In this document: piece by piece, positions 651-46,308 of the stretch
How positions within the stretch are numbered: position 1 is the stretch's first letter
Layout of the letters: the number at the start of each line of letters is the position of its first letter
Origin: Atribacterota bacterium
GTDB lineage: Bacteria > Atribacterota > Phoenicimicrobiia > Phoenicimicrobiales > Stramentimicrobiaceae
Direction of reading: 5' to 3'
Assembly: GCA_040767965.1 (NCBI GenBank)
Contig: JAXGNR010000009.1
Span: 37,955 to 101,954, forward strand
Length of the DNA: 64,000 nucleotides
The notes under the pieces: generated by a model
Told to the model about the DNA's origin: nothing
Databases searched by the model: none
The model's input: only the letters and a program-made list of their open reading frames with translations
Position numbers and translations under genes: made by a program

Positions 651-686
651 AAGTAACAAATAAAAATAAGGAGCGAAAAGAAGAAG

Positions 687-1979
687 ATGTTTTTTATAGC
701 ATTATTATTAATAGTATTCGCATTGCTTATGGCTTTAGCAGTTCCTATTGGTTACGTGATAGGAATTACAGCCTCCTTTGGTTTATTATATATAGGTGGA
801 ACGGATTTTTTAAGAATATTAGTTACTCGATATAACAGTGGGCTCACTGGCTTTGTATTAGTAGCAGTACCTATGTTTACTTTAGCAGCTCAATTCATGA
901 ATCGCTCTGGTGTTACAGTATTGCTAATTAATTTTGCTAAAGTGTTTTTGGACGTCTTCGCGGGGGATTGGCTGTTGTCATTACTGCTGTTTGTGTTGTT
1001 TTTGGAATATTAACTGGTTCAGCGATGTAACTGAGACGATTGCAGTTGGAAGTATTTTGATTCCTAACATGAAAAAAGAAGGATATCCGGGGAGCATTCG
1101 CTGCTGCAGTAACAGGAACAGCTTCTGTTTTAGGCCCAATCATTCCTCCAAGTACAGTAATGATAGTTTAGCTACGATGATACCCGAGACATCAGTAATA
1201 TCCTTATTTGCCGCAGGCTTTTTACCTGGATTTTTGATAGCGGGTCTTATAATGCTTATTGTTATTTTCATTAGTTATCGCAAAGGTTATCCCAGAGGAG
1301 AAAGAGTAGCTGTAAAAGAAATTTTTAAAAGTGCGCTAAAAGCTATTATCCCTCTTATGACAGGGATAATCATGTTACTTCCTATATTTTATTAGGAATA
1401 ACTGATGTTACTGAAGCTTCTGCCGCAGGTGCTTTTTATGCTTTGTTATTGGTTTATTTTATTATAAAACATTAAAAATAAAAGATATTTTTGAATCAGC
1501 AAAAAACGCATCTAAGTTCTTGGGTGTTATTTATTTATTACTAGCTACAGCTAGTGTATTGGGTTGGATTATTGCAAAGTGGTCTTAGTACTATGGTATC
1601 AGACACAATAACCGGGTATAGTGGGAATCCAATTATGATACTTATTGCACTAAATATTTTTTTATTAATAGTGGGAATGTTTGTGGACACACTCCCAGCA
1701 GTAATTATACTAGCTCCAATTCTTATACCACCCCTGATAAGGATAGGATTTCATCCATTGCATGTGAGTATGTTATTATTAATTAATTTAAATATTGGGA
1801 ATGCTACACCTCCGGTAGGGATGACCCTTATGACTGCATCAAAAATTGCAGGGGTTTCTTATGAAAGCACAATAAAGCAAGGTTTTCCATTTATACTTTG
1901 CTTGATAATAGCACTTTTAATATTGACTTATTTCCCAGTGATTATTCTATTTGTACCAACTTTACTTGGTTTAATATAA
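687..1979 (+). pseudogene. TRAP transporter large permease (DctM-like), at least two frameshifts
   Basis: Three consecutive ORFs (687-1013, 934-1395, 1554-1979) in different frames together read like one DctM polytopic permease. Confidence 0.7.
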
Positions 1980-2399
1980 TTTTTTTAATCAAGCGAGAAC
2001 TCCCACCTATAAGGGCAGAGGTGAGAGCATGTATCTTTACCTTTCATCCGTACTTTAATTAACAATAAGTAAAAACTTAAAAAAATTATTCTGAATTTGT
2101 TTTTTAATAATTGTTTTGTTGTATTCCATTAACAAAAAGTATTAATTAGTGCTTATTAGTCGAAAGTTCAAAAGATCCAAAAGATGATGGGAAATAATAG
2201 TCTTGCATATAATAGAGAGGAGGTTCATTACCTAAAAGAAATTACTGCGGTAAATGTTGTATTGTAATTGGATAATTGTGGTGAATAAAGATTAAGTAAT
2301 ATAAGTAATAGATGAATAATAGTGAAAAGACATTGTGGCCTCATTAGATACAAAATACGCGCATGTTTTCTGAAGGAGAAAACAATAATGATAGAAAAA

Positions 2400-3604
2400 A
2401 CTATTTCCTTATCAGTCCATCGTCTCCTGCTCTACTCTTGGACATGAATAAGATAGAGCGAAACATAAAAATGTCTCGGCTAGCAGCCGATGCGAATGTT
2501 AGATTAAGGCCACATGTTAAGATTCATGAAAGTGCAGAAATTGCCAAATGCAAATTGATGCAGGAGCGTGTGGTGTAGAAGTAGGTCCTGTGGCTCAAGC
2601 GAGTGTATGGTAAATAATGGGATTAAGGATATAAAAATTGCTCACCACAGTTATTATGGCGGACACAAGGGTGAATCACTCAAAAGAATTCTTTTGAATG
2701 GCGATGTAAAAGTCACTGTTGTAATAGATATGATTGAACAAGCTGAACAAATATCTTGTATTGGTAAAATGCTTGGTCGAGAAGTTTTCTGTAAATATAA
2801 AGATTGATACAAGTATAGTAGCAGGTGGCATTTCACGTCATGGTATCAGAACTTGATGAAGAAGCCTTAATCACCGCAGCTAGGAAGGCTTCTAGATTCC
2901 ATATTAAAGTAACAGGAATTTACGCCCATGAAATGGGTGCTGAAGCAACAGATAAGTCTTTTAGATTTCATGCTTATAAAACTCTCGAGATAATGTCAAA
3001 CTTGGCTATAAAATTTAAAAATGCCGGTATTGAATTAAATGATGTTTCTGTTGGTGCTTCCCTGAATATCGCTATACATGCAAATATCTAAGGAAAGGTA
3101 AATTCGGGAGGTAAATGAACTTCATCCAGGGGAATTTTGTGATTGGCAGTCTTGTATACTGACATCTTGGTGGTAATAAAATAGAAAATTGCGCTCTCGA
3201 AGTATGTTGGTTACAGTAATGAGTACCGCTCATCCAGACTGGGTAATGATTGATGCAGGTTATAAAGGCTTTTTCTCCTGATTATATTTTGGGAGCTGAA
3301 TGAGCGAGCTATTTCTGGGAATACAAAGGTACACCTTTACGCTTTGGTCTTAGGTAAAGAACGCACAGATTTACGGGCAGCAACATTGTGAGTGCTGAGG
3401 TACATATTTATTATATGGATCACTAAACCAAAACTAAATATTGGTGACCGCTTGGAAATTATTCCAAACAACAGCACTTGTGCTATAAATATGCATGATC
3501 CTCTATATATGGAAGTAAGAAATGGCTTTATAGAGAGAGTAATTCCTATTACCTGTGGGGTAAAGGTAACTAGTGTTACGTTCCTAAAAAATCTTTACAT
3601 TTGA
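2400..3604 (+). pseudogene. D-serine deaminase-like / alanine racemase-domain protein (DSD1 family), degraded copy 1
   Basis: Fragments PALLLDMNKIERNI, RLRPHVKIHE and C-terminal GDRLEIIPNNSTCAINMHD parallel the neighbouring copy; several frame changes. Confidence 0.5.
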
Positions 3605-3740
3605 AATATTTTATCTGATACTTTGAGCAAGGATTGATTTAAGAGGAATATTATTATTGGGTTTTGATTAAATGATTCAATGTTTAATATTATATTTATA
3701 TTATTAATAGTAAAACTTTAATATATAAAAGGAGTTTTTA

Positions 3741-4850
3741 ATGGATAGATATATAATTGGTTCTCGAGTTGAAGATATCGAAACACCTGCTCTATTACTT
3801 GAGCTTGATAAACTTGAATACAAGCATAATAAAATGGCAGACTTAATAAGAAAAAACAATAAATATATTAGACCACATTTTAAAACACATAAGAATCCTT
3901 TTAGCGCACAAACAACTTTCAGCGGGGCTATTGGAATTACCTGCCAGAAATTATCAGAAACAGAGGTGCTGGCAAAATCTGGAATAAAAGATATCCTTAT
4001 TACAAATGAAGTGGTGGGGAAGCAAAAATAAGAAGATTAGTAAATTTAGCTGCTTATACTGATATCAAAGTTGCGATTGATAATGAGCAAAATGCAGAAG
4101 ATATTTCTGAGATAGCTTTAGACAAAGGTGTTGTAGTAAATTATTTGGTTGAAGTTAATATAGGAATGAATCGTTGTGGGATAAGAATAGGGGAGCCAGT
4201 TGTAAATTTTATAAAAAAAATAAATAAATTACAAGGTTTAAAATTTTTAGGGATCTTCGCTTATGAAGGCCACGCTGTATTTATAGAGTCATTGGAAGAA
4301 AGGTATAAAGAAACCAATATAGCCCTTGAAAAAGTTAGTCATACCAAAGAATTACTTGAAAAGGAATCCATATTTTTTGTCAAATAATTAGTTGTGCAGG
4401 AACAGGTACTTATATGATTGCAGGGCAACACCCAGATGTTACAGAAATTGAGGCAGGCAGTTATCTAACAATGGATAGCAAATATGAAAATATAGAGGGG
4501 GTTGGGGAAACCTTTAAAACAGCTTTAAGTGTACTTACTACTATTATAAGCATTCCAAGTAATGATAGGATAATTATTGATGCTGGTTTAAAATCTATAA
4601 GTAAAGATTTTGGTATGCCGTTCTCAAAGAACAATAGAGAGATCTAAAATTGTATAAGCTTTCAGAAGAACATGGAATATTTAAGGTAAATAAAAGATAA
4701 TAATAAAAATTTTTCTTTAGGGCAAAAAATAGAATTAATTCCTAGTCATGGTTGTACAACGATAAACTTACATGATCTTTATTATGGAATTAGATCCGGC
4801 ATTGTGGAATGCATTTTGCCAATAGAAGGAAGAGGAAAAAGCTATTAGGT
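3741..4850 (+). pseudogene. D-serine deaminase-like / alanine racemase-domain protein (DSD1 family), degraded copy 2
   Basis: N-terminus PALLLELDKLEYKHNKM...RPHFKTHK, then continuation in two other frames (4145-4387, 4414-4647) and C-terminal GQKIELIPSHGCTTINLHD; breaks sit at homopolymer runs. Confidence 0.6.
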
Positions 4851-5222: not shown

Positions 5223-5810
5223 ATGATTGCTTATAAAACAGAAAAACTTAACAATGCCATTTGTTATTTTGCCAATGAAGTTTATAAGCGAAGGAAGGAA
5301 TATTTGCCCCAAACATTATTATATAAATTGCTTTCTTATTTGGATTTCACCAGTATTGAAAAATTAGGAGTCCCAGCTTTAGAGCTAAAATATCGTGCTC
5401 TTAAGAATGGCCCAGTACCTGAAGAGATATATCAAAACAAAGATGCATACGAAACTGATTGCTTTAAATTTGAGAAGAGAAGCAATAGAAGATTTATTAT
5501 TATCTCAAAGAGGGAAGCTGATTTAGATTATTTTTCAGATTTTGAAATCGAGATAATGAATGATTTATTAAACAGATATATCGGCAAAGAAAATACTATG
5601 AAAGAAATCATTGATAATATCTGTAATGATAGTCACAAAGATATCAAAGCCTGGAAAGTAGCATATGACCGGGGAAAAAATAGTGAAATGAATTATAGTG
5701 ATACATTTGAAGCAATTGACCAAAAAGATCTTGAAAATTTATCTATATCTATAAATGAAGAAAGGTTTTTAGTTTATCGCGGCTTAAAAGAAAAAACTAA
5801 ATGCAATTAG
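5223..5810 (+). CDS. Panacea (DUF4065)-like domain protein, putative antitoxin
   Basis: 195 aa; motif KLLSYLDF...GVPALELKYRALKNGPVPEEIY resembles the DUF4065/SocA-type signature; RBS-like GGGAGG upstream. Confidence 0.55.
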   Translation: MIAYKTEKLNNAICYFANEVYKRRKEYLPQTLLYKLLSYLDFTSIEKLGVPALELKYRALKNGPVPEEIYQNKDAYETDCFKFEKRSNRRFIIISKREADLDYFSDFEIEIMNDLLNRYIGKENTMKEIIDNICNDSHKDIKAWKVAYDRGKNSEMNYSDTFEAIDQKDLENLSISINEERFLVYRGLKEKTKCN

Positions 5811-6145
5811 GTTCAGTATTTATTTGGAAAAATTTCCCCCACGGTAAAGATGGTACCATTAAAGATAGATATTTTGTATATGTTGGAGAAAGCCATTTCC
5901 CCGTTAACCCTGTACATATATTTTTAATTACTACAACAACTAGAAAAATGTATTATGCAACAGGTGGTTCTAGAGAAAAGCATAATATTTACAAGTTTAA
6001 AGCTGGTTCTTTTGGTTTTGTGGAAGATTGTATTTTAGATATTGATTTTCTTCAATCTAATATAAAAAAAAGTGCTTTTGACTCCTGTCAAAATGAAATA
6101 AAAGAGGTTGGTAAACTTCCGGAGAAAGAATTGAAAGAAATATAA
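5801..6145 (+). CDS. Small protein with MazF/PemK-like signature, putative toxin partner
   Basis: 114 aa; ATG overlaps the upstream stop by 10 nt; GSVFIWKNFPHGKDGTIKDRYFVYVG and ITTTTRK align by eye with MazF/EndoA N-terminal strands. Confidence 0.4.
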   Translation: MQLGSVFIWKNFPHGKDGTIKDRYFVYVGESHFPVNPVHIFLITTTTRKMYYATGGSREKHNIYKFKAGSFGFVEDCILDIDFLQSNIKKSAFDSCQNEIKEVGKLPEKELKEI

Positions 6146-6847
6146 TATATAATTTAATATTAAAATCTAAATACATAAACTTAAAGGCTAAACAAGATAT
6201 TTATATTAGCTATAACCACGCAAATATAATAGGTCTAAAGAGACCAAAAAGAAAATAAATAAAAAAGAATAAGTAAATAATGGAATCAGATACTGTCTTG
6301 AAAATCAACTCAAAACTATTCTTTAAGGATACGAAGAAATGTCCCCTGTATCGATTCTTTTTAGCTAGATGATAGATATTTTACTCTCTTACCGGAAATG
6401 TTTTAATAACTTAATACTATCTTCTTTCTTAGAGCTAGTGCTGTATAAGATGATTATAGCTGGTAATTTGAGCAAATTAATTAAACATGGATATCTTCTT
6501 CTCTTTTTTGAAGATTTCTAGTATTGCTATTAATTGCTTGTTTAACATCTCCTTACCCTCCCTGCCATAGTAAAGAGCTTTGTTCTCTCAATATAGAGGG
6601 GAGAAATCCCCTATAATTAAAATAATTTAGAGTACTTTTGCGTTTGAGGTATCGATAAAACTTGGAATACTTTTTTGATGAGGCAATTCAATATTTTGAC
6701 ATATTATTTAAACCATAATAAAATTGTAGCCATAAATAACTACATAATTATAGATATATTTACAAAAAAGAATCAAAATTAAGAAAAACATGGATACAGA
6801 GAACCGTTTCCTGTATCCTTCCTCAAAAATGTGAAGGAGGATTAAAC

Positions 6848-7864
6848 ATGGATATGCTTAAAGATAGCAGATATAATTTGAAGCCGGAGTTTCCGCCGCA
6901 TCTGTCTCTTGGAGTAAGCAAGGAAAAATTCATGCTGAAAACATGTGCAATCATGTCCATTCCATTGATCCTGGGGGTACTTGCAATTGGATGGCAAGCG
7001 CTTTGGCAGATCCTTATATCTTCCGGAACGGTTTTGATCCTGCATACTTTAATACAGTTTTGGGAAAGTCAGACAGAACGCCGTGTTTCATATCCTACAC
7101 CTGCATCACCGTTGGTACTGGCCTTGATAGTAGGTTTGAGTATGCCGGCTTCATCGCCATATACTGTGACTGTCGGAGTGGCTGCACTGGCTATGGTGAT
7201 ATTTAAATATTTACAAGGAAGAATTTTTACGCGCAAATTTGTAAATCCTGCTGCTGCTGCAAAAGCGGTGTTGTTGACAATGCTTTCACTTATGATATTT
7301 TTTGAAAATCCCCTTCGGGTAGGCATGCTCTACCATCCCCATCACTTGAATCTGGATTTGTTGTCTTCAGCTGGATTTGCTAGTGCGATTTCATTCTATG
7401 AAACTGATACTTTGACGGCTGTGCAGAGCCTGATCTTTTGGAAAACCCACGGTTGGATTGGTGGCGCTTCCGGGCTGGGAACGCTTGTTGCGGGAATAAT
7501 AGCCTGTTTCTGGATTAGACTTAAATGACGCATTCCCTTAGCTTTTCTTTCAGTAATGACTGTACTTTCAACAGGAATGGGGCTTTTTACGGGAGGAGAT
7601 CCTCTATCGCGTATTGCCCTGCATGTCTTTACCGGAAGTACTATTTTTCTGGCGTTTTTTATGGCTACCGAGCCTCAATCTACACCAATGCCGGAAAAAA
7701 GTCAGTACCTATTTGGTATCTCTTTAGCTGTACTTACTTTTGTTTTACAGCTGGCAGGAGTACTGGGTGGGTCTATTATTGCCCTGGTAATTTTAAATTT
7801 ATTCACTCCCTGGTTAGATAAAATTGGTCATAAAAGAGCTATAGGTATGAAAGGAGGCAAGTAG
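6848..7864 (+). pseudogene. rnfD: RnfD/NqrB-family membrane subunit interrupted by in-frame TGA at 7526-7528
   Basis: ORFs 6848-7528 and 7556-7864 are in the same frame; C-terminal FFMATEPQSTP matches the RnfD FFMATDP motif; combined length about 330 aa. Confidence 0.6.
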
Positions 7865-7865
7865 T

Positions 7866-9152
7866 ATGCGCAGGTATTATGAAGAAAAACAAGGCTTCAG
7901 GATTGATGCTAAAATGAAGTTAGGCCTGGAACAAAATGCCTTCGAAGTAATTCCAACACCTCCGGCGATAATAGTTTTCCTGGATCAACATGTTGGATTT
8001 CCTGGAAAGCCGCTGGTAAAAGAAGGAGACCGAGTCTTAACGGGCCAAAAAATATCTGATGGCGAGAAAAAGCTCACATTACCTGTGCACAGTCCTATTA
8101 CCGGTAGGGTGACCGGATTTGTTGAACTACGCCATCCTATTTCAGGAAAATTGAAGCACGCTGTAGCTATCGAAGCAGAAGGAGAAGAAGAGTGGATTCT
8201 TATGAAGCAGTATCCAAACTTTAAATCTTTAAGTAACCAGGAGATAATCAAACGAGTGCGGGAAGCCGGAATAGTAGGACTGGGTGGGGCTGCTTTTCCA
8301 ACATATATGAAATTATCCAGAGGATCTGATGTGGATCATCTGATTATAAATGCTAAAGAAAGTGATCCCAACCTTGCCTGTGATATTCGGTTGGCTCTTG
8401 AACAACCTGAAGAATTGATTAATGGGATCGAGATTATGGCTCGCGCTCTGGAGGTAGAGAAAGTTACTTTTGCTACCAGAACTGAAGAAGGTGAACTCCT
8501 TCAATTTGAAAAGCTTTTAAAAGAGCGAGGAATAAAAATTGCTCATATCAGACCTTCGTATTCGATAGGTAGTGAACGTCTGCTGGTACGTGAATTGTTG
8601 GGCAGAGAGGTGCCAGTCGATCAATACCCTCCGGATGTTGGTGTTGTGGTGCATAATGTGGCCACCTGTTTTGCAACCAGTGAAGCTGTTATTAAAGGTA
8701 AACCTCTTATTTCCAGAGGTATAACTTTTTATTCCAGTAAAACCGGAGGAAGAAACTTATGGGTAAGAATGGGCACTCCAATTGAACATATTCTGAACTA
8801 CATGAATATTTCTTCTGAGAACATAGATCGGGTTATCCTGGGATCAATAATGATGGGCAAAGGCGCACCTGATTTAAAAACACCCATGCTTAAGTGTTTT
8901 GCTGGCGTGGTAGCATTAACTTCCGATGAACATAGTTTATATAAAAACCCATCTCCGTGTATACGCTGTGGTTATTGTGATTCGATTTGTCCTGTGAATA
9001 TTTATCCATCTTTGCTTCTGGAAGCATTGGAAAAAGGCAGGACTGAGATCCTTGATTCTCTTAATATTAACTCATGTATAGACTGCAATCTTTGTTCTTA
9101 TGTATGCCCTTCTTCAATCAGAGTCAACCCCAAACAAAGAATGATGGGATAA
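7866..9152 (+). CDS. rnfC: RnfC-like electron transport subunit with two 4Fe-4S ferredoxin motifs
   Basis: 428 aa; GIVGLGGAAFPTYMKL motif; CIRCGYCDSICP and CIDCNLCSYVCP cysteine clusters; starts 2 nt after the rnfD-like ORF. Confidence 0.75.
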   Translation: MRRYYEEKQGFRIDAKMKLGLEQNAFEVIPTPPAIIVFLDQHVGFPGKPLVKEGDRVLTGQKISDGEKKLTLPVHSPITGRVTGFVELRHPISGKLKHAVAIEAEGEEEWILMKQYPNFKSLSNQEIIKRVREAGIVGLGGAAFPTYMKLSRGSDVDHLIINAKESDPNLACDIRLALEQPEELINGIEIMARALEVEKVTFATRTEEGELLQFEKLLKERGIKIAHIRPSYSIGSERLLVRELLGREVPVDQYPPDVGVVVHNVATCFATSEAVIKGKPLISRGITFYSSKTGGRNLWVRMGTPIEHILNYMNISSENIDRVILGSIMMGKGAPDLKTPMLKCFAGVVALTSDEHSLYKNPSPCIRCGYCDSICPVNIYPSLLLEALEKGRTEILDSLNINSCIDCNLCSYVCPSSIRVNPKQRMMG

Positions 9153-9524
9153 CTAACCGATTCTCCTTTTATTAAATTCTTAGAAAAATTTTATTTTTAT
9201 AAATAATTGATTTTTTAAAATAAAGAGAGTATATTGAAAACAATAATATATAACTATTAAATCATTAGCAATAGTTTAAATAATTATTAAAATATAAAAC
9301 TTTATATAGCATCATAATGTCTGTAATTAAACTGTTAAATATAAAGATAAAGACATATCTAAGTTTATTTATAGTTTAACTACGATATAAAGAAGATAAC
9401 CATATGTTTCATTTATTAAGAAAACTACACTATTAGATTAGCAAGAAAAATAAGTTAATGTTATGAATTCCCAATTCAAATTTAGAGCATATTTTAAGAA
9501 ATAGGAGGGTTTGCCTATTTAAAA

Positions 9525-9630
9525 AAGCTCTAAGCCGAGAAAGGTAAACCATCGGTAACGATGGGACGCAAAGTCAAGGGTCCCGCCTCAACTAATCCCC
9601 TCAATGGGACTGCCAGACTATCTGCTTACT
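9525..9630 (+). ncRNA. c-di-GMP-I (GEMM)-like riboswitch aptamer
   Basis: GGUAAACC-AUCG-GUAA-CGAU-GGGACGCAAAG-UCAAGGGUCC closely matches the Vibrio Vc2 core GGCAAACC...GAAA...GGGACGCAAAGCC; P2-like stem GGUCCC/GGGACU; about 130 nt upstream of a surface lipoprotein gene. Confidence 0.65.
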
Positions 9631-9757
9631 GCACCATGTTTATTTATGATTCGAAAAGATAAATCATATTCAAACTAAACCCATTACAGCCATATTCTAT
9701 GATGAACAATTATTTAATAATATTAAAGCATGTTATATAAAAAAGGAGGCTATTTAA

Positions 9758-11965
9758 TGAAATTAAGTAAAAAACTGGTTTCTGTTAGCATGTTTTTATT
9801 GATTTTATTATTTCTGTCGAGCTGCGGAATTATACCGCAAACACCTGAAGGAAAGATTTCCGGCCGGGTACTGATTCCCCTATTTGAAATGTCTAAGGAT
9901 GTTAGCGGATGGATTCCCACAGCCAATGCCGTAGTCACTATTGTTGATGCTTCTGGAGTAACCCATACAACAACTACTGATGAGGAAGGTTATTATAATT
10001 TTGAAGATATTACAGTCAATCCAAATACAGTTATTACTGCATCAGTCACTGTAGATGAAAATATTGTCATACTTAAAAATGTAATACCCCATGCAGTCAC
10101 AGCAGGTGAAGACTATAATGCCGGTGAAATGACTCCTGAATCAACAGCATTGGCTCTGGTGGTAGAAGAACTCCTGGCAGAAGGCATGGATCCGGAAGAT
10201 ATTGACCATGAAGAGATAGAATCAAATGATAATTTTTCAGATTTAGTAGAAAAAATTACTGAAGTACTAGAAGAGGGAGGAGATGTAACTACAGATCCTG
10301 ATATTGTTGATATAATAAACGACATTATCAACCCACCTGTACCTCCCTTCGCCACCATCACCTTCTCCAACTACAAAATTACCGATCTATAACCAGACTC
10401 AGAAGACATATCATGATACTATCCAGAAGGCGATCGATGCATCCGGTAGTGGTGATATCATTATTGTCTCTAAAGGAACTATATAATGAAAACATTGTTA
10501 TTGATAACAAAAACATAACCCTGAAAGCTCCGACCCTGCAGATTCCGTTGTTGTGGCTGCCACCATCATAGACGGACAGGACTTGAATTCGGTGATAAAG
10601 ATCCTAAACGGAGACAAATCAAACCTGGAGGGATTTACCATCCAGAATGGAAATGAACCTGATTATGGAGGTGGGGGTATCTTTATCCGGCAGTTCTCCT
10701 GTGATCAGATACAACATTATTGGGGATAATATTGATGATGATATTGACACAGGGAATTTTGGAGATTGTGGTGGTGGAATTGGTGTTGTTGAATATAGTG
10801 AAACACCACATATTTATGAAAACATTATTATTGGCAACTCAGCAGACTATGGCGGCGGAATGTATATAGATTATGGTTCTCCTCTTGTTGAAAATAATAC
10901 GATTAAAGAAAATACCAGTAAGTACGACGGCGGAGGAATTACAGTGTTTTTCAGCAAGGAAGAGGAATATTGCCCAACCATCAGGGATAATACTATTGAA
11001 TATAATGTGGCAGATAATGGTGGTGGAATTGCTGTGGATGATTTAGGGATGCTATAATTGAAAATAACGGAATCAACAACAACGAAGCAATTTTTGGTGG
11101 AGGGATTTATGTTTATTACAAAGCTGATGCAGATATAAAAGGAAATAATATTATTGAAAACAATAAGGCAGGATATGATGGTGGAGGTATTTATATTGAT
11201 TCAGATGGCATCATCACTATTACCTCAAATACTATCAATAACAATGTAGCAAATATTGCTTCAGGTTCTTACTCCGGTGGAGGAATTTATGTGAATGAAA
11301 CATTCATGGCGACAACTCCCACAATTGGGGGTACGACGGGAATTGATACTGATAATTTTAACATTATCTGTGGTAACAGCCCTGACCAGGTGGATCCTGA
11401 TGATTATCCTAATAATTATTATTATACAATTGGCGATACAGGACCTGCTGGTGGGATCATCTTCTATATTGATGAAGCGAGACAGTTTGATTGGACTTAT
11501 CTTGAATGTGCACCCTATGGCTGGTATGATGGAGGAGAGGATCCAATACTGGCTTGGGGACCATGGGATGGAACCTCGGGATCACCTGGAGATGGTGTAG
11601 GAACAGGGATTTATGATTATGAATCGGATCTTGGGCTGGGGGAGGCAAATACCACCCTCATTCTTGCTGAAACTGGAACATTCCCAGCTGCTGAAGCAGC
11701 AGCTGCATATACAGGTGGTAGCCAAACAGACTGGTTTCTGCCCTCGAAATCTGAATTGAGTCTGATGTATTCCAATCTGTATCTGGCAGGATTGGGAGGA
11801 TTTTCTGATGATTCCACTAATCCACAAGATTTCTATTGGTCTTCTGCAGAAACTTCTCCTAACTCGGAATGGAAATTAGCTTGGACTAATTGTTTTGCAA
11901 GTGCAGGGCTTGGAGGATTCGATAAGACTTTGTCTTTTCGTGTTAGACCAATCCGAGCTTTTTAG
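9758..11965 (+). pseudogene. Large surface lipoprotein (beta-helix repeats, DUF1566-like C-terminus), multiply frameshifted
   Basis: Lipoprotein signal MKLSKKLVSVSMFLLILLFLSSCG; repeated GGGI beta-helix-type motifs; C-terminal DWFLPSKSELSLMY resembles DUF1566; reading frame changes at least three times. Confidence 0.6.
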
Positions 11966-21524: not shown

Positions 21525-22769
21525 ATGGAATTAAAGATTGAAGGCATCAGTCATAATGGAGAAGGAGTAGATAGAAATAAAGGGAAAGTATTTTTTGTAC
21601 CTTATGCTGTTCCTGGAGAAATTGTTCAGGTTGATATTGTAGAAGAAAAGAAAAAATACTCCCGGGCGGTTTTAAGAGAAGTTATAAAGCAATCACCTCA
21701 CCGTACAGAACCAAAGTGTCCTTATTACTATCAATGTGGTGGATGTTCCTATCAGCATGTGGAATATGAACAACAACTACTGTTAAAGAAAAATATTACT
21801 GAAGAAACAGTAAAGAGAATAGGTGGAATATCGGTAAAAAATTTAAATACTATAGGAGTGCAAAACCCCTGGAATTACAGAAACAAGGTTGTCTGGCATA
21901 TCAACAAAAGCCCGGGGAACATAAAAATGGGTTTTTACAGATATCAGAGCAGGCAATTAATTTCAATAGATAGTTGTCCTTTACTTTTACCAAAATTAAA
22001 CCAGATTAGTGCTCTAGTTAAAAATTTGCTTCCAGGTATCAATCCGGGAGAAATTAGCTCAATTATGCTACGCCAGTCTTATAATACTAACCAGGTAATT
22101 CTTGAATTTGTTAACTGCAATCCGGATAAAAAAACAGAAAAGATCCTTTCTCAGGAGATTGATGTAATCTATGAGAAAAAAGATGGACAAATAAAACTTC
22201 TTACCGGTTCGGGATCAATAAAAGAGAAAGCGGGAAATTATTATTTTTTACTATATTCAGAGTATTTTTTTCAAGTAAAACCTCTGCAGTTTAGTCCAAT
22301 AATCAATGCAGTTGTCGAGTATTTGCATCTTAATAAACAAAATAATGTACTTGATACTTATTGTGGTGCAGGAATGTTTGCCTTGAATGTTTCTGAAAAA
22401 GCATTTTCAGTAGTTGGCATAGATTCCAGCGTTTCAGCAATTAAAAATGCCAGAAAGAATGCAGAGTTGAATGATATCAAAAATTGTCAGTTTATTACCG
22501 GTTTTTGCGAATCTGTTTTGCCCAGGACAGAAAGTTCTTTTGACAGAGTAATCATTGATCCGCCTCGAACCGGTCTTAAACCAGAAGTAATCAATTCTAT
22601 AGTTAATATTTCTCCAGAAAGGATTGTCTATGTATCCTGTAATCCTGCAACCCTGGCCAGAGATCTAAAACAGTTTCTTCTAAATCAATATCAGATACTT
22701 TCTATCCAACCTGTAGATATGTTCCCCCAAACAAGCCACATTGAAAATATTGCTGTACTGATAAGGTGA
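21525..22769 (+). CDS. rlmD: 23S rRNA (uracil-C5)-methyltransferase RlmD/RumA family
   Basis: TRAM domain, Fe-S cysteines CPYYYQCGGCSYQH, class I methyltransferase C-terminus; TGA stop. Confidence 0.85.
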   Translation: MELKIEGISHNGEGVDRNKGKVFFVPYAVPGEIVQVDIVEEKKKYSRAVLREVIKQSPHRTEPKCPYYYQCGGCSYQHVEYEQQLLLKKNITEETVKRIGGISVKNLNTIGVQNPWNYRNKVVWHINKSPGNIKMGFYRYQSRQLISIDSCPLLLPKLNQISALVKNLLPGINPGEISSIMLRQSYNTNQVILEFVNCNPDKKTEKILSQEIDVIYEKKDGQIKLLTGSGSIKEKAGNYYFLLYSEYFFQVKPLQFSPIINAVVEYLHLNKQNNVLDTYCGAGMFALNVSEKAFSVVGIDSSVSAIKNARKNAELNDIKNCQFITGFCESVLPRTESSFDRVIIDPPRTGLKPEVINSIVNISPERIVYVSCNPATLARDLKQFLLNQYQILSIQPVDMFPQTSHIENIAVLIR

Positions 22770-25175: not shown

Positions 25176-26219
25176 ATGTTATCAATAAGAAAGCAGCAAT
25201 TTTTAATTTTTGTAATGTTGGTTGTTTCGGTAGTTATTTTTTCTTTCTCCGTTTCCGCACAAGAAAAGATCATTTGGAGATCTTCAAGTTTTGGTCCTGC
25301 ATCCAATTATTCTCAAATCCATCACGATAAATGTTGTGAAGCAATTACTCAAGCAAGTGGTGGAAGAATGGAAGTAAAAGCATTTGTTGGTGGCTCTATT
25401 ATTCCAGAAACAAAAGAACTAGATGCTGTAATTGAAGGTGTAATCGATTTATGTTACACCTGCCCGATGTATAATTTAGACAAATGGCCAGCAGCTGGTT
25501 TAATTAGTTCACGACCAGGTGGGTTACCAGGTCAATACCTAATACAATGGTTTGATTATGGTGGCGGGTATGAACTAATGAACAAAATGATGGAAGGATA
25601 CAATGTTATGGTCATGCCAGGATTCTTGTCCCCTGAACCACCAGAAGTTTTCCTCCATTCAAAGAAAAAAATTGAAACACCTGATGATTTAAAAGGATTG
25701 AAAGTACGTACATCTGGTGATGGTGGAGAAATTCTTGCCAGAATGGGTGTTTCAACTATATTTTTACCTGGAGGTGAACTATACGAAGCAATGCAGAGAG
25801 GTACTATAGATGCTTTTGAATATGCTGGTTTATCAACCAATTGGAGTATGCATTTTGATGAAATTGCCGAGTATGTAATTTTGTCACCATTAAGAGCACC
25901 CAGCGATCCTCATGTCTGGTTTGTTAATAAGGATTCCTGGGAAGCACTTCCTGATGATCTAAAAGTGTTAGTTCAGAATGTAATAGCAAGATGGACTCAG
26001 GAACAGCAGAATTTTGAAAGCCATTATGATATTGAAGCACTGCAAAATTTTAAGGATGCTGGATGTGTAGTATATAACTTACCCAAAGAAGTAGAAGATG
26101 CACTTTCAAAAGAAGCTCAGGAATTTTATACTGAAAAAGCTGCTAAAGAGAGTCCCATATTTGGAGAAATTCTGGATTCTATGAATAATTATGGTAAATT
26201 ATCTGGACTTTGGGAATAA
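25176..26219 (+). CDS. dctP: TRAP transporter substrate-binding protein (DctP family)
   Basis: Signal peptide; DctP-like fold; followed by dctQ and dctM. Confidence 0.8.
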   Translation: MLSIRKQQFLIFVMLVVSVVIFSFSVSAQEKIIWRSSSFGPASNYSQIHHDKCCEAITQASGGRMEVKAFVGGSIIPETKELDAVIEGVIDLCYTCPMYNLDKWPAAGLISSRPGGLPGQYLIQWFDYGGGYELMNKMMEGYNVMVMPGFLSPEPPEVFLHSKKKIETPDDLKGLKVRTSGDGGEILARMGVSTIFLPGGELYEAMQRGTIDAFEYAGLSTNWSMHFDEIAEYVILSPLRAPSDPHVWFVNKDSWEALPDDLKVLVQNVIARWTQEQQNFESHYDIEALQNFKDAGCVVYNLPKEVEDALSKEAQEFYTEKAAKESPIFGEILDSMNNYGKLSGLWE

Positions 26220-26242
26220 ATTTCAAATAATTTTAATGTACT

Positions 26243-26788
26243 ATGAATAATCACAGGGAGTTAACAAGTATGATAACTTTAAAAAAAATAGTTAGAGTTA
26301 TTGATACATTCAGTAAATATGCCGGCTTATCTGCAAGATGGCTTGCTTGGCTCCTTGTCTTAGTAGGCGCATATGACACAATCATGAGGCATTTTTTTAA
26401 TGCGCCTACTATTTGGGCATATGAAACTATGTGTATGGCTGGTGGGGCTCTTTATGCTCTTGGATGGTCTTACTGCCATTTATATGATTCTCATGTTAGA
26501 GTAGATTTATTATACCGCCTGCTTCCTGACAGAAAAAAAGCTTTGATGGATGTGATAAGTTCTTTAGTATTTTTTTTCCCCTTAATGATAGTACTTGTGC
26601 AGGTTTCTACCAAATGGGCAATGAGAGCATGGAGAATCAATGAGATTATGATTTCAACTTATTGGTATCCCCCAGCCGGTCCTTTTAGGACAGTGGTTGC
26701 TATAGGATCTGTTTTGTTGCTCCTACAAGGTATAGCTAAGCTAATTCGTGACCTATATTTTGTAATAAGGGGTGAGCCATTTGATTGA
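26243..26788 (+). CDS. dctQ: TRAP transporter small permease (DctQ family)
   Basis: 181 aa, four predicted TM helices, between dctP and dctM. Confidence 0.75.
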   Translation: MNNHRELTSMITLKKIVRVIDTFSKYAGLSARWLAWLLVLVGAYDTIMRHFFNAPTIWAYETMCMAGGALYALGWSYCHLYDSHVRVDLLYRLLPDRKKALMDVISSLVFFFPLMIVLVQVSTKWAMRAWRINEIMISTYWYPPAGPFRTVVAIGSVLLLLQGIAKLIRDLYFVIRGEPFD

Positions 26789-28121
26789 ATTAAGTGAACA
26801 GGTTATTACAATTTTGATGTTAGGGGGAGTTCTTACCCTTGTTATGACTGGCTTTCCAATTGCTTTTGTTATAGCCAGCATAGCGCTTTTTATGGGAATA
26901 TTCTTATTTGGAGGAGAAATAACATATCATATTTTATATAGCAGACTTTATAGCATGTTGTTAAGTTATCCATTTCTTGCTGTTCCTCTTTTTACTTTTA
27001 TGGGTGTTATTCTTCAAATGTCTGGAATTGTTGAAGAGTTGTATACAGTACTATATGAAAGCATGAGTGGATTTAGAGGGGGTTTAGCAATTGTAACAAT
27101 AATATTTGGAACTATATTAGCAGCATGTTTAGGTGTAATAACCGCTTCTGTTACCATGTTGACATTAATCGCTCTTGCACCTATGGTAACTAGAGGGTAC
27201 AGCAAATCCCTTGCTTCAGGTTCAGTTGTTGCTGCTGGTACCCTTGGCATATTAATTCCTCCCAGTATTATGTTAGTTGTGTATGCACCTCAAGCTGGTC
27301 TTTCTATCGGACAAATGTTTATGGCTGCTTTTACTCCAGGATTAATTCTTTCAGCTTCCTATATAGCTTATGTTGGGATTCGATGTTATTTAAATCCTAA
27401 ATTAGGACCCCCGGTATCAGAAGAGAAAAAATCAAAATTACCTTTTGTGGCTAAATTAATAAAGCTATTGAAATCATTGCTTCCTCCTGTATTTATTATT
27501 CTAGCTGTTTTAGGGACTATATTTTTGGGAATAGCTCCTCCAACAGAAGCAGCAGCGATGGGAAGTCTGGCCGCTGTTTTATTAGCAGTAGTGTATCGAA
27601 AAATGACCTGGGATATTGCTAAGCGAGCAGCAATTGAAACACTTCGAGTCAGTTCTTTTGTACTTTTAATTGCAGGAATCTGTTATGCTTATGTTGGTGT
27701 TTTTATGAATGCCGGAGGCGGAAATGTTGTAAAGGAAGCAATTTTGTCTGTTCCTGGTGGGAAATGGGGTTCATTTTTTGTAATTATGTTAATCGTATTT
27801 TTACTGGGAATGTTCATTGAATGGATCGGTATCGTTTTTATTATTGTACCGATTTTGACACCTGTTATAACAGCTTTAGGTTTTGACCCACTTTGGGCTG
27901 GCATGATGGTTTGTATTAATTTACAGATGGCCTTTCAAACACCCCCTATGGCTATGTCGGTTTTTGTCTGTCAAGGGACTGCCCCTCCAGAGCTTGGTGT
28001 TACATTGCAGGACATTATAAAAGGGGTAATTCCTTTTATTGCAATTATTGCTTTTTGGTTGTTTATGTTTAGCATTTATCCTCAATTAATAACCTGGTTG
28101 CCAAATCTAATGATGAAATAA
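26772..28121 (+). CDS. dctM: TRAP transporter large permease (DctM family)
   Basis: 449 aa polytopic permease; true start may be a downstream ATG near 26816. Confidence 0.9.
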   Translation: MSHLIELSEQVITILMLGGVLTLVMTGFPIAFVIASIALFMGIFLFGGEITYHILYSRLYSMLLSYPFLAVPLFTFMGVILQMSGIVEELYTVLYESMSGFRGGLAIVTIIFGTILAACLGVITASVTMLTLIALAPMVTRGYSKSLASGSVVAAGTLGILIPPSIMLVVYAPQAGLSIGQMFMAAFTPGLILSASYIAYVGIRCYLNPKLGPPVSEEKKSKLPFVAKLIKLLKSLLPPVFIILAVLGTIFLGIAPPTEAAAMGSLAAVLLAVVYRKMTWDIAKRAAIETLRVSSFVLLIAGICYAYVGVFMNAGGGNVVKEAILSVPGGKWGSFFVIMLIVFLLGMFIEWIGIVFIIVPILTPVITALGFDPLWAGMMVCINLQMAFQTPPMAMSVFVCQGTAPPELGVTLQDIIKGVIPFIAIIAFWLFMFSIYPQLITWLPNLMMK

Positions 28122-38809: not shown

Positions 38810-40120
38810 TTATTCTAAAGGATCTTTGCCAAATATTTCACTGCGTGGTAAAAAGCCGGCAGCTTCTTTATCTATTTCCAAAAACATTCTGGTAAATTCT
38901 TTTGCGGCCTCTTTGTGCAATGCAGCCCTTGGAATTGTTAAAGCATGAGCAATAGGTGTAGCTATTACAGATGTATTTTCATCTATGGCAAAAGTAACCC
39001 GGGCATATTTTTCAGCCAAAGAAGGATTGGCAAGATTCATTATTTCTGGTAGCTCTGCATAGTTTTTACCAAATACTTTGACTGCTGAACGATACATAAA
39101 AAGATATTTAGCCTGTTTTTGATTACCAAATAGACCAGGATTTTTTTCCATACCGATATGACCTGGATGATTCATCAGGCGATTTGTAAGTCCTGGTTTG
39201 TAATAATCTGCCAGCAGCATTGTCATTACAGCTCGATAACCGCTGGGGTCACCATAGGGATTGCCATGTTTGAATGTTGCATCTTCAGCAAGCAATTTTT
39301 CTTCCCAATTATCATTGTCTATATCTTCTCCTATTATTACCATTTCATTACCTGCCCAGATGCGGTATCCTTCAGCATAATCAGGCATCATCATAGAATT
39401 TATTATAGTATCATCCGCTGAAATCAATAGATCGCATGCTTTTCCACTTATGCAATCACGTATAAGATCTACTGATCCACCAGGTGTATAAATAACAGGC
39501 AGTTCAGGATGTAATTCATTCCATTTTTCAACAATAGTTTTTACCAGTCCCATTGATACACCTGCACAAAATACATTTAGTCTATAAGGGGCAAGTTCTG
39601 CTTCAAGTGAGGAGAGGGCTTCTGCTTTTTCTTTACGAACATCAGTAACTTTTTGGGCCAGTATACCTAAAAAATTACGCAGCATAATACCTTGTGGTTT
39701 ACTATATTTTTCTCCATAATACCTGGTAACCATTTCTCCGCTCATTCGCAACAGGTAAAGGTCAAATGTCTCATTTTTTGGTCCACCAGGGGGAGGACCT
39801 TTGATTTTTATTCTGGGAGCTCTACTCTTGTTCATTTCAGATAAACAAGGAATTTCTCCCATCATCATGCCCGGCTCAGTAGGTTTAGGCATATTGTATT
39901 GATCTAATCTGGGTTCTAAAAGTTCAAGTGGTTTTCCTTTAAGCACTACACAAAACATGCCTTCATTTATATCAATTGGCAAAGTTTTATATTGACCAGC
40001 TTCCCGACGTACCATTTCAGGTTTCATCACCTCTAACAGCGAGATCAGTTCTTCTTCATCGATATTTTGAAACAGAGTCATGGTTTTTAATTCAGGTAGA
40101 AAATCCCGATAATTTAACAT
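38810..40120 (-). CDS. Two-domain protein: N-terminal cNMP-binding-like region plus ModA/WtpA-like solute-binding domain
   Basis: 436 aa; no signal peptide; FCAGVSMG...GGSVDL...SGKACDLLISAD resembles molybdate/tungstate-binding proteins; first gene after the structured leader. Confidence 0.45.
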   Translation of the reverse strand: MLNYRDFLPELKTMTLFQNIDEEELISLLEVMKPEMVRREAGQYKTLPIDINEGMFCVVLKGKPLELLEPRLDQYNMPKPTEPGMMMGEIPCLSEMNKSRAPRIKIKGPPPGGPKNETFDLYLLRMSGEMVTRYYGEKYSKPQGIMLRNFLGILAQKVTDVRKEKAEALSSLEAELAPYRLNVFCAGVSMGLVKTIVEKWNELHPELPVIYTPGGSVDLIRDCISGKACDLLISADDTIINSMMMPDYAEGYRIWAGNEMVIIGEDIDNDNWEEKLLAEDATFKHGNPYGDPSGYRAVMTMLLADYYKPGLTNRLMNHPGHIGMEKNPGLFGNQKQAKYLFMYRSAVKVFGKNYAELPEIMNLANPSLAEKYARVTFAIDENTSVIATPIAHALTIPRAALHKEAAKEFTRMFLEIDKEAAGFLPRSEIFGKDPLE

Positions 40121-46087: not shown

Positions 46088-46308
46088 ATATTGACAAACA
46101 TAAAGAAATGGTAAATACTTTTAATAGTCTGCCTGAAAAAAAATATTATTACAGAATACCACAACTCCGAATTATCTAACCTAATGATAAAATACTATTT
46201 TTTTCTATGGTTAGATAATCAGTTATTATTTGTAAAATAACCAAGGGCAATTAAGGAAACTTAATTGCCTCCCATAATTGGAAAGGAGGGATACTTTGCA
46301 TGAAGTTC

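Follow-up and report, generated by a model that had tools for sequence, protein, structure and literature searches.

Two questions are raised by an rnfD-like gene and the rnfC-like gene that follows it in a 64 kb stretch of Atribacterota DNA (the window, by which the whole stretch analysed is meant): what an in-frame TGA is doing within the first gene, and why the two genes stand without the remaining subunits of an Rnf complex. A sequence-only reading had described the RnfD-like frame as interrupted by TGA with the conserved FFMATEP segment downstream in the same frame, and had left selenocysteine or another form of recoding open.

The RnfD-RnfC Locus

One-frame translation of the rnfD-like gene confirmed this description: the TGA is the single internal stop in the 338 codons, and FFMATEP (residues 270–276) lies 3' of it in the same frame. 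A single Pfam match to PF03116 (NQR2_RnfD_RnfE) extends across the stop, covering residues 16–333 (E 5.6e-38). No other place on the plus strand of the 64 kb shows one stop dividing two long same-frame open stretches. The promoter-like region upstream of rnfD, taken as a whole, shows no clear enrichment relative to shuffled sequence.

The rnfC-like gene begins 1 nt after the rnfD stop. Its Complex1_51K FMN/NADH domain carries the sequence GLGGAAFPT, two Cx2Cx2Cx3CP motifs are present, and residues 33–417 of the protein match the solved RnfC of C. tetanomorphum (E 1.9e-67). Since rnfC has its own ribosome-binding site within the 3' end of rnfD, it is translatable independently of the upstream TGA. 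Table 1 also lists two broken genes upstream of the pair; a second D-serine-dehydratase-like pseudogene copy may lie at 2348–3601, where a weak 38-aa match (E 1.5e-4) was found with no Pfam match.

Table 1. Features of the rnfD-rnfC locus and of the DNA upstream, in window coordinates
Feature	Position	Strand	Remarks
DctM gene	657-1976		broken; at least three pieces in different frames
D-serine-dehydratase-like gene	~3729-4845		broken; in pieces
Promoter-like site, TTGACA-17 nt-TAAAAT	6696..6724	+	11/12 matches, ~125 nt upstream of rnfD; consensus match only
AAGGAGG ribosome-binding site of rnfD	6834..6840	+	7 nt 5' of the ATG; read from sequence
rnfD-like gene	6848..7864	+	338 codons, one in-frame stop; divergent PF03116 subfamily
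H-P-H-H loop	7334..7345	+	aa 163-166; signature of D-C-type RnfD, invariant in alignment A2
In-frame TGA	7526..7528	+	codon 227; ancestral TGG (Trp), G-to-A at 7528
FFMATEP	7655..7675	+	in the family's most conserved block; columns F270-P276 invariant or near-invariant
AAGGAGG ribosome-binding site of rnfC	7851..7857	+	inside the rnfD 3' end; read from sequence
rnfC-like gene	7866..9152	+	intact, 428 aa; RnfC_N, Complex1_51K, two 4Fe-4S motifs (Pfam)

The Ancestral Codon

The TGA occupies the position of Trp227 in the motif LKWRIP. This tryptophan is found in all 23 aligned homologues and, as the pair K-W, in each of the 59 GTDB species-representative loci that cover position 227; of these, 51 show TGG as the codon, and 8 more show K-W. 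Trp is also present at the aligned position of E. coli RsxD and of the three solved RnfD structures (A. vinelandii, A. woodii and C. tetanomorphum). What orthologues carry at this site is Trp (TGG), never Cys or Sec, and the possibility that they too are truncated here, as expected of a shared pseudogene, found no support, as no homologue among the related loci ends at codon 227 and the other homologues have uninterrupted frames.

The closest relative is the metagenome contig L001, which aligns collinearly with the window at 97.2% identity. Its rnfD (98.6% nucleotide identity to the window gene) is an uninterrupted 338-aa frame with TGG at this codon, the base matching 7528 being G, and a second near-identical assembly (P0131) likewise has W at the same position. 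At the level of sequence, these comparisons establish that the TGA arose from the invariant Trp227 codon, TGG, by one G-to-A transition at 7528. Given TGG in L001 and Trp (TGG) in the orthologues, it is a nonsense change unique to the window's assembly. An exact-protein look-up gave no match for the 226-aa fragment, and the only contig recovered by a metagenome scan for further copies of the TGA allele, made with a 32-mer that had N at 7528, was L001, which has TGG.

Pseudogene, Artefact or Leaky Stop

The reading that probably holds is that of a fresh rnfD pseudogene, produced by the nonsense change at Trp227 inside a conserved, stand-alone RnfD-RnfC module. Translation would stop after 226 of 338 residues, and the truncated product would lose approximately four hydrophobic segments together with the most conserved block of the family, HVFTGS...FFMATEPQSTP. 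A split but functional RnfD, restarting at the next in-frame ATG (7556), was considered and rejected: there is no ribosome-binding site at this ATG, and restart there would omit residues 227–236, including the invariant W-R-I.

Differences from L001 were counted gene by gene. The two rnfD genes differ by nine synonymous and four missense changes, compared with six synonymous and four missense changes in the intact rnfC, and downstream of the stop the rnfD differences are five synonymous and none missense. There is no sign of relaxed constraint in rnfD in this comparison, in which the differences are few (9+4 against 6+4 in rnfC). With only one lesion in the gene, this pattern would suit a very recent event or, alternatively, an artefact. 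We infer the former, that is, that the rnfD of the window is a very recent pseudogene. Real decay is plausible and is favoured by the fragmented genes located 2–6 kb upstream of rnfD.

A sequencing, assembly or consensus artefact, in which the true codon is TGG and the A at 7528 represents an error or a minority allele in the MAG consensus, is unlikely, though it deserves some weight. The intact state is one base away, the lack of any sign of relaxed constraint suits an error as well as a recent mutation, and the source record, 125,516 bp long, is a contig of metagenome type. In addition, a third conspecific assembly (P0121/P0131) carries a different rnfD lesion, a 1-nt deletion in an A run, and homopolymer indels of this kind are typical of assembly errors; this deletion could reflect recurrent loss of the gene or simply error-prone assemblies. 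On the other hand, G-to-A is not a homopolymer-type error, the long ORFs in the remaining ~50 kb of the window are intact, and the fragmented genes nearby carry many lesions that are not explicable as single errors.

A tolerated leaky stop, by which UGA-C would be read at low frequency by tRNA-Trp and the gene would remain partly functional, is improbable. UGA is the leakiest of the bacterial stop codons and its usual misreader is near-cognate tRNA-Trp; the tetranucleotide UGAC, which is the context present here, was reportedly found by Poole, Brown and Tate in 1995 to be the weakest stop signal in E. coli. As Trp is what the ancestral codon specified, readthrough by tRNA-Trp would restore the exact wild-type protein, and the zero missense differences from L001 downstream of the stop are in keeping with such a product. 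Against this, no other family member has the stop, which is therefore neither programmed nor selected for; little protein would come from readthrough of at most a few per cent; and no stimulatory structure is present, as the fold of 7520–7590 has z = -0.23.

Recoding of the TGA is answered in the negative by the TGG codons of the orthologues and of the 97%-identical contig. The sequence-only reading had judged a recoded genetic code unlikely, and this view is borne out by the lone interruption, by the stop codons of the window's 51 long ORFs (27 TAA, 12 TAG and 12 TGA) and by the RlmD-like ORF (21525–22769), which ends with TGA and whose match extends to the end of the RlmD profile. TGA terminates 11 other long ORFs in the window, some of them with ATGA gene overlaps; the census and these overlaps indicate the standard code. 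Reassigned UGA (tables 4 and 25) is ruled out by the census and the gene ends. HflX, RlmD and TamB serve as bacterial markers in the window.

As for the RNA itself, the sequence-only reading had seen no convincing SECIS, only a weak CATTCC/GGAATG pairing. The CAUUCC/GGAAUG pairing 3' of the TGA is real, and the fold of 7520–7590 (-10.2 kcal/mol) is no more stable than shuffled sequence, 79 of 200 shuffles folding as well. Rfam gave no match. The locus shares with bacterial selenoprotein genes, which combine a UGA with a downstream SECIS, only an in-frame UGA in a conserved frame; it differs from them in having no SECIS, in having Trp as the homologous residue and in a UGA that is not conserved. 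A related Atribacterota contig (L006) does carry a selenium-handling cluster (an AIRS/SelD-like gene, a YedE-like Sulf_transp gene, TusA and Se_S_carrier) a few kb from its rnfDC, but neither this cluster nor any tRNA gene is found in the 64 kb window. That RnfD is a selenoprotein with selenocysteine at UGA-227 thus has next to no probability and was rejected, with Trp aligned in every homologue and never Cys or Sec, no SECIS-like hairpin, no Rfam match, and TGG in the closest relative.

A Conserved Two-Gene Module

The arrangement of the locus is of more use than the nonsense change. Across the whole 64 kb window, phmmer revealed no homologues but those of D and C, with D first, as the sequence-only reading had stated for the near neighbourhood; homologues of RsxA, RsxB, RsxG and RsxE were not detected in the window with single E. 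coli queries, a search of limited sensitivity. The same self-contained RnfD-then-RnfC pair is present in 41 of 41 unfused loci with room to judge, comprising 39 with a full-length C directly after D and two with overlapping open frames. Carriers of the unfused pair belong to Atribacterota, Thermoplasmata, Asgard archaea, Acetothermia/Bipolaricaulota and Thermotogae. D and C are separated by a gap, or joined by an overlap, of 1–4 nt. No RsxA, RsxE, RsxG, RsxB, ApbE or FMN_bind gene lies within ~8 kb of the 41 D-C loci (A, B, G and E sought by phmmer with single E. coli queries), and the flanking genes vary between lineages. The pair had been called an orphan, a misleading word: no other rnf genes are nearby, but the pair is not a leftover of an rnf operon, since all 41 loci are stand-alone. 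RnfD-then-RnfC is a conserved, self-contained two-gene module.

That the pair could instead be the degenerate remnant of a six-gene rnf operon, or that the RnfC-like protein could be a PduS-type microcompartment reductase unrelated to the RnfD-like protein, is very improbable. D and C are indeed alone here, and PduS (RnfC-like) genes have been reported in the microcompartment clusters of Atribacteria (PMC6776118). Against these readings, D-C adjacency holds in 41 of 41 loci from distant phyla with no A, E, G or B nearby and with variable flanks, and the D-C order is reversed with respect to the described operon types, rnfABCDGE, rnf(B)CDGEA and rnfCDGEAB (PMC5736913). Within 5 kb of the window pair lie a SocA/Panacea-like gene, a CarboxypepD_reg-like gene and one gene of unknown kind, but no gene for a shell protein, and the partner gene of RnfC is always RnfD. 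The full rnf operon remnant was rejected on the conservation of D-C adjacency without the other subunits. Neither a stand-alone rnfDC pair nor an RnfD-molybdopterin fusion was found described in the literature covered, which was incomplete.

Features of the RnfD Subfamily

The D-C-type RnfD proteins share a histidine-rich loop that falls in the region of the FMN-attachment loop of canonical RnfD. The loop reads H[PT]HH in 37 unfused loci and HEHH or HSHH in two more. In a sister group, the RnfD domain is fused to a formate-dehydrogenase-like (molybdopterin) enzyme, and YPEH replaces H-x-H-H. FMN-binding-domain or ApbE genes stand beside the RnfD-molybdopterin fusion type only, not beside D-C loci.

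The loop was compared by phmmer, MAFFT, L-INS-i and hhalign, and the methods disagree within it; in one alignment, the A. woodii and C. tetanomorphum sequences were rebuilt from earlier printed alignments. The FMN-attachment threonine aligns opposite G176, I181 or Q193 in three alignments of this poorly aligned loop, and in none of the three is a conserved Ser or Thr found opposite the Thr of the TTAT-PL loop, whose general pattern is (S/T)xAT-PL. D-C-type RnfD is therefore probably without the covalent-FMN threonine. With a His-rich loop in its place, the redox site in the membrane or at its outer face probably differs from that of Rnf.

Proposed Function and Relation to Known Systems

From homology and gene context, we infer that the pair, when intact, would represent that half of the Rnf electron path which runs through RnfC and RnfD. 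RnfC would be a cytoplasmic, NAD(H)-binding subunit with FMN and two [4Fe-4S] clusters, docked on an RnfD-type membrane protein of approximately ten helices, and together they would connect the NAD(H) pool of the cytoplasm with a site within the membrane or across it, cations perhaps moving as well.

Likeness to the Rnf complex (RnfCDGEAB/RsxABCDGE, ferredoxin:NAD+ oxidoreductase) is evident in both proteins. The RnfC-like protein matches solved RnfC (E 1e-62 to 1e-67) and shares its domains and cofactor motifs, and the RnfD-like protein, a PF03116 member, can be aligned over its whole length with solved RnfD (E 1e-12 to 1e-16), with the W-R-I-P and FFMAT(D/E)P blocks in common. The pair differs from Rnf in having no RnfA, E, G or B nearby and in the order D-C rather than C-D; RnfD-like is ~25% identical to E. 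coli RsxD, its H-x-H-H loop is specific to the D-C subfamily, and the three alignments place no conserved Ser or Thr opposite the TTAT-PL threonine.

NqrA-NqrB of Na+-NQR is a homologous pair, in which a peripheral RnfC/NqrA-type subunit sits on a membrane subunit of the RnfD/NqrB type, and it is at NqrA-NqrB that the last electron step of NQR, from riboflavin in NqrB to quinone, takes place (reviewed in PMC12174285). NqrA has no cofactors, whereas the RnfC-like protein here has FMN/NADH and two [4Fe-4S] motifs. The match of RnfD-like to NqrB is weak (E ~1e-5), with no sign of a quinone site.

A precedent in concept is provided by NQR/RNF-like partial systems, in which just one of the two routes that electrons take across the membrane in Rnf/Nqr is kept (Meheust et al. 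2021, eLife, PMC8238504). In these, an RnfD/NqrB-type protein is combined with a cytoplasmic NAD(P)H-binding module, for which one-way electron flow was proposed; RnfD/NqrB is fused to an NqrF-type PF00175 domain, and the systems are defined by an adjacent FMN-binding or ApbE gene (PMC8238504). Keeping one Rnf/Nqr electron path is common to both, but the NAD(H) module of the present pair is a separate RnfC, PF00175 is absent (Pfam finds PF03116 only in RnfD-like), and D-C loci have no FMN_bind or ApbE gene within ~8 kb.

We put forward, tentatively, a model whose parts are, taken jointly, possible but doubtful: RnfD and RnfC alone may form an undescribed two-subunit membrane oxidoreductase. 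In the absence of RnfA, E, G and B, the pair would tie oxidation or reduction of NAD(H) to electron transfer across the membrane or to the movement of cations, and the covalent FMN of RnfD would have given way to a His-rich site (H-x-H-H) for a metal or cofactor at the outer face. The RnfD type would act as a general membrane coupling module, given its fusion in the sister form, which adjoins NuoF-like and multi-FMN-domain proteins. The pair would have spread horizontally between anaerobes living in saline and alkaline sediments (Atribacterota, Thermoplasmata, Asgard archaea, Acetothermia and Thermotogae).

Implications

The stop codon itself is ordinary and of little consequence: in a single genome, one base has changed to give a nonsense codon, or is an error. 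Knowing this keeps the TGA from being annotated as a selenoprotein or cited as evidence of recoding. The D-C module is conserved but uncharacterised in many anaerobic bacteria and archaea; many uncultured anaerobes have the stand-alone pair, among them Asgard archaea, in which it goes at present by the name “RnfABCDGE type electron transport complex subunit D”. Any metabolic reconstruction that takes these genes as evidence of a complete, ion-pumping Rnf complex would be mistaken. Should the pair work as a minimal enzyme, it would reveal what the RnfC-RnfD half of Rnf/Nqr is capable of by itself.

An in-frame TGA at an invariant tryptophan codon

The rnfD-like gene is interrupted by a single stop codon, beyond which the same frame continues through the FFMATEP segment to its terminal TAG. 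As the sequence-only reading had described, the interruption is evident on translation, and the Pfam profile PF03116 (NQR2_RnfD_RnfE) crosses it as one unbroken match (residues 16–333, E 5.6e-38). Among the plus-strand frames of the window, this is the only place where one stop lies between two long open stretches of the same frame. The nearest relatives of the RnfD-like protein among GTDB species representatives are from Atribacterota MAGs, at 87% and ~70% amino-acid identity, so the window probably derives from this phylum. The adjoining rnfC-like gene has its own ribosome-binding site (AAGGAGG, 7851–7857) and encodes a protein with RnfC_N, a Complex1_51K FMN/NADH domain and two Cx2Cx2Cx3CP motifs; residues 33–417 align to the solved C. 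tetanomorphum RnfC (E 1.9e-67), with similar alignments to the solved A. vinelandii and A. woodii proteins. A possible regulatory element is a hairpin located 16 nt 5' of the rnfD ribosome-binding site, in what is presumably the 5' leader.

Table. Features of the window and of loci encoding fused RnfD
Feature	Position	Strand	Remarks
DctM (TRAP large permease), broken	657–1976	+	at least 3 pieces in different frames; Pfam positions 1–82, 158–228, 289–412
D-serine-dehydratase-like gene, split	~3729–4845	+	3–4 open pieces; Ala_racemase_N and D-ser_dehydrat
SocA/Panacea-domain gene and 114-aa ORF	5223–6145	+	195-aa SocA/Panacea protein; 10-nt overlap
8-bp hairpin	6792–6818	+	GGATACAG, 11 nt, CTGTATCC
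rnfD-like gene	6848–7864	+	338 codons; TGA 7526–7528; TAG 7862–7864
rnfC-like gene	7866–9152		428 aa; starts one base past the rnfD TAG
c-di-GMP-I riboswitch	9533–9625	+	48.7 bits (gathering score 35)
TRAP transporter, intact	25176–28121		
WtpA-like tungstate-binding protein gene	38810–40120	−	
Molybdenum/tungsten cofactor (Moco) riboswitch	46153–46304	+	80.9 bits; upstream of ORF 46386–47231
Fused RnfD, L044	1129–4536		position on its own contig
Fused RnfD, L055	7863–11354		position on its own contig
Fused RnfD, 14 further loci (L046–L070)			

The residue at the TGA position is Trp, within LKWRIP, in 23/23 homologues of a first alignment. Of 61 related species-representative loci, the 59 that cover the site all have K-W, and direct reading of the codon gave TGG in 51 of these. 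The solved RnfD chains (IIHWEIP, ISWRIP, IDWRIP) and E. coli RsxD (IRWHIP) have the same Trp, and neither homologue search returned another protein truncated here. The 226-aa fragment falls into one cluster (≥90% identity) with the full-length 338-aa protein P0122, which is encoded by a JGI metagenome contig (L001) that is collinear with window positions 6525–10091, gapless and 97.2% identical. The two rnfD genes differ at 14 bases, including 7528, where the window has A and L001 has G. A 32-mer spanning the codon, with N at 7528, matched among metagenome contigs L001 alone, with TGG, and no second copy of the TGA allele was found. The TGA is thus a TGG-to-TGA transition on an invariant Trp codon, and hence a recent pseudogene or an error rather than recoding.

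A third near-identical assembly, an ENA contig of 1,431 nt (P0121/P0131), also encodes Trp at this position. Its rnfD carries a different lesion, a frameshift caused by one A missing from an AAAA run at codons 199–200, which may reflect either recurrent inactivation in the population or an assembly error.

Recoding and the origin of the stop codon

The sequence-only reading judged a changed genetic code improbable, and wider evidence agrees. The window (33% G+C) is bacterial, as judged from HflX, RlmD, a TamB-like protein, TrkA and TrpE, and its 51 long ORFs end in 27 TAA, 12 TAG and 12 TGA codons, several of the last forming ATGA overlaps with the next gene. The match of the RlmD-like ORF cited in that reading reaches the final position of its NCBIfam profile before the TGA. 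The window holds no tRNA genes.

Bacterial selenocysteine insertion requires a hairpin directly 3' of the UGA, and selenocysteine usually stands for Cys. The best fold of 7520–7590 is the CAUUCC/GGAAUG pairing already considered unconvincing on first reading (−10.2 kcal/mol); it is no more stable than shuffled sequence (z = −0.23). An Rfam search of 6100–9800 matched only the downstream riboswitch. Whether orthologues carry Cys, Sec or a sense codon had been proposed as a check, and the answer, Trp encoded by TGG, together with the fold and the lack of an Rfam element at the TGA, rules selenocysteine out. A selected readthrough signal is unlikely, since the stop is present in this single sequence. 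In the closest Atribacterota relatives (L006, 13969–17669; also L007 and L008), a selenium-handling cluster (Se_S_carrier, cysteine-desulfurase-like, TusA, YedE-like Sulf_transp and AIRS/SelD-like genes) lies 2–6 kb 3' of rnfDC; the window contains none of these genes. The c-di-GMP-I riboswitch lies ~100 nt 5' of an ORF (9730–10392) with a weak CarboxypepD_reg-like match under the Pfam cut-off.

We regard a real nonsense allele, and hence a fresh pseudogene, as the probable explanation. A G-to-A change at 7528 is not a homopolymer-type error, no long ORF is broken in the other ~50 kb of the window, and clearly decayed genes lie upstream of rnfD. These are the split D-serine-dehydratase-like gene and a broken DctM, which is probably redundant given the intact TRAP transporter. 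An erroneous A at 7528 is unlikely, and several observations would fit it as well as a very recent event: rnfD carries a single lesion; relative to L001 it shows 9 synonymous and 4 missense changes, the intact rnfC showing 6 and 4; and 3' of the stop there are 5 synonymous changes and no missense change. A tolerated leaky stop is very improbable; it would draw on the weakness of UGA-C, weaker as a stop context than any other in E. coli, and on misreading by tRNA-Trp restoring the wild-type residue.

Upstream of the D-serine-dehydratase-like gene, a possible second, more decayed tandem copy (2348–3601) is weakly indicated by a single match of 38 aa (E 1.5e-4). The SocA/Panacea-domain gene and the overlapping ORF, which has no Pfam match, look like a toxin-antitoxin pair; they are flanked by the decayed genes and, on the rnfD side, by a 700-nt AT-rich spacer.

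If the nonsense allele is real, the truncated RnfD would lack residues 227–338, a part that contains some four hydrophobic segments as well as the family's most conserved stretch, H259 to P280. No purine-rich ribosome-binding site precedes the next in-frame ATG (7556), and translation restarted at that codon would leave out the invariant W227, R228 and I229. RnfC could still be made from its own AAGGAGG, barring polarity from premature termination.

A conserved RnfD–RnfC pair

A phmmer comparison of E. coli RsxA, B, G and E with all open frames found no match in the 64 kb, bearing out the earlier observation that only D and C homologues are present, with D first. The label "orphan" does not hold. 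Full-length RnfC directly follows unfused RnfD in 39 of 61 genome loci, and two further unfused loci have D then C as overlapping open frames, making 41 of the 41 unfused loci that extend far enough to show the order; four contigs that stop before a possible C gene were left out of this count. In the called genes of Thorarchaeota, Thermoplasmata and Atribacterota, RnfC lies within 1–4 nt after RnfD. The neighbours of the pair are unrelated between these groups, and even the closest Atribacterota locus shares no flanking synteny with the window. Homologues of RsxA, E, G, B or ApbE were found within ~8 kb of none of the D-C loci. This constant adjacency, with differing flanks and no other subunits nearby, argues against an orphan remnant.

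By record names, the carriers are Atribacterota, Thermoplasmata, Promethearchaeota/Thorarchaeota (Asgard), Acetothermia/Bipolaricaulota and Thermotogae MAGs, many with isolate names resembling what we take to be a soda-lake sediment series. Two full-length RnfC genes follow RnfD in tandem at three Thermoplasmata loci, L024 (1633–4384), L042 (9027–11720) and L049 (8864–11758); at L021, RnfC is split by a frameshift. Known rnf operons are of the types rnfABCDGE, rnf(B)CDGEA and rnfCDGEAB (PMC5736913), and the D-then-C order of the pair is the reverse of all three. No description of a stand-alone rnfDC pair was found in the literature searched, which was incompletely covered.

D-C-type RnfD and its fused relatives

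The RnfD-like protein is only ~25% identical to E. coli RsxD and matches solved RnfD at just E 1e-12 to 1e-16. Canonical RnfD has FMN attached at the final Thr of its (T/S)xAT-PL loop (PMC12174285), a loop visible in the aligned E. coli, A. woodii and C. tetanomorphum sequences. In three independent alignments this Thr falls opposite G176, Q193 or I181, never a conserved Ser/Thr, and the corresponding loop of the D-C family lacks any (S/T)xA(S/T) motif, suggesting from sequence that the covalent FMN site has likely been lost. Just upstream of this region, the D-C subfamily conserves G-x-x-F-H-P-H-H-L (H-P-H-H at window 7334–7345), which canonical RnfD lacks. H163, H165 and H166 are invariant in 16/16 aligned sequences, as are H201 and H259, and H-x-H-H occurs in 39 unfused loci. 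The motif may form a metal or cofactor site on the face that carries FMN in Rnf.

At 16 loci (Halanaerobiaceae, Spirochaetaceae and other Clostridia MAGs), this type of RnfD forms the N-terminal domain of a ~1,135-aa protein, with YPEH replacing HPHH. Two [4Fe-4S] motifs follow, then a formate-dehydrogenase/Nqo3-type molybdopterin oxidoreductase (Molybdop_Fe4S4, Molybdopterin, Molydop_binding). The next genes encode NuoF-like and NuoG-N-terminal-like proteins, often with a protein of three FMN_bind domains; ApbE adjoins one locus, L046. No description of an RnfD-molybdopterin fusion was found in the literature searched. In other relatives (P0104–P0120), RnfD is fused to a C-terminal di-cluster ferredoxin domain. 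This RnfD type is thus partnered by several cytoplasmic redox modules, as would suit a membrane subunit for electron or ion coupling.

Proposed function of the pair

In the last steps of Rnf, electrons leave the FMN on RnfD for the riboflavin of the same subunit, then pass to [4Fe-4S] and FMN of RnfC and on to NAD+ (PMC12174285). RnfDC retains exactly this half, so NAD(H) exchange would be expected at RnfC, which, by homology to Rnf/Nqr, would pass electrons via its clusters to a cofactor on RnfD. The NAD(H) pool would thereby connect to an acceptor or donor in the membrane or at its outer face, possibly with cations moving through the Amt-like fold of RnfD. Conceptually, its closest counterpart in print is the "NQR/RNF-like" partial system described by Meheust et al. 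2021, in which an RnfD/NqrB domain is fused to an NqrF-type NAD-binding domain, FMN-binding or ApbE genes adjoin, and one-way transmembrane electron flow is proposed (PMC8238504). Both defining features, the fusion and the FMN-binding or ApbE neighbour, are missing here, so the pair is akin to that class in concept and is not a member of it.

The pair varies the Rnf/Nqr theme in a form that is conserved but uncharacterised. This bears on annotation, as its genes receive the subunit names of a six-subunit complex although the rest of that complex is not encoded beside them.
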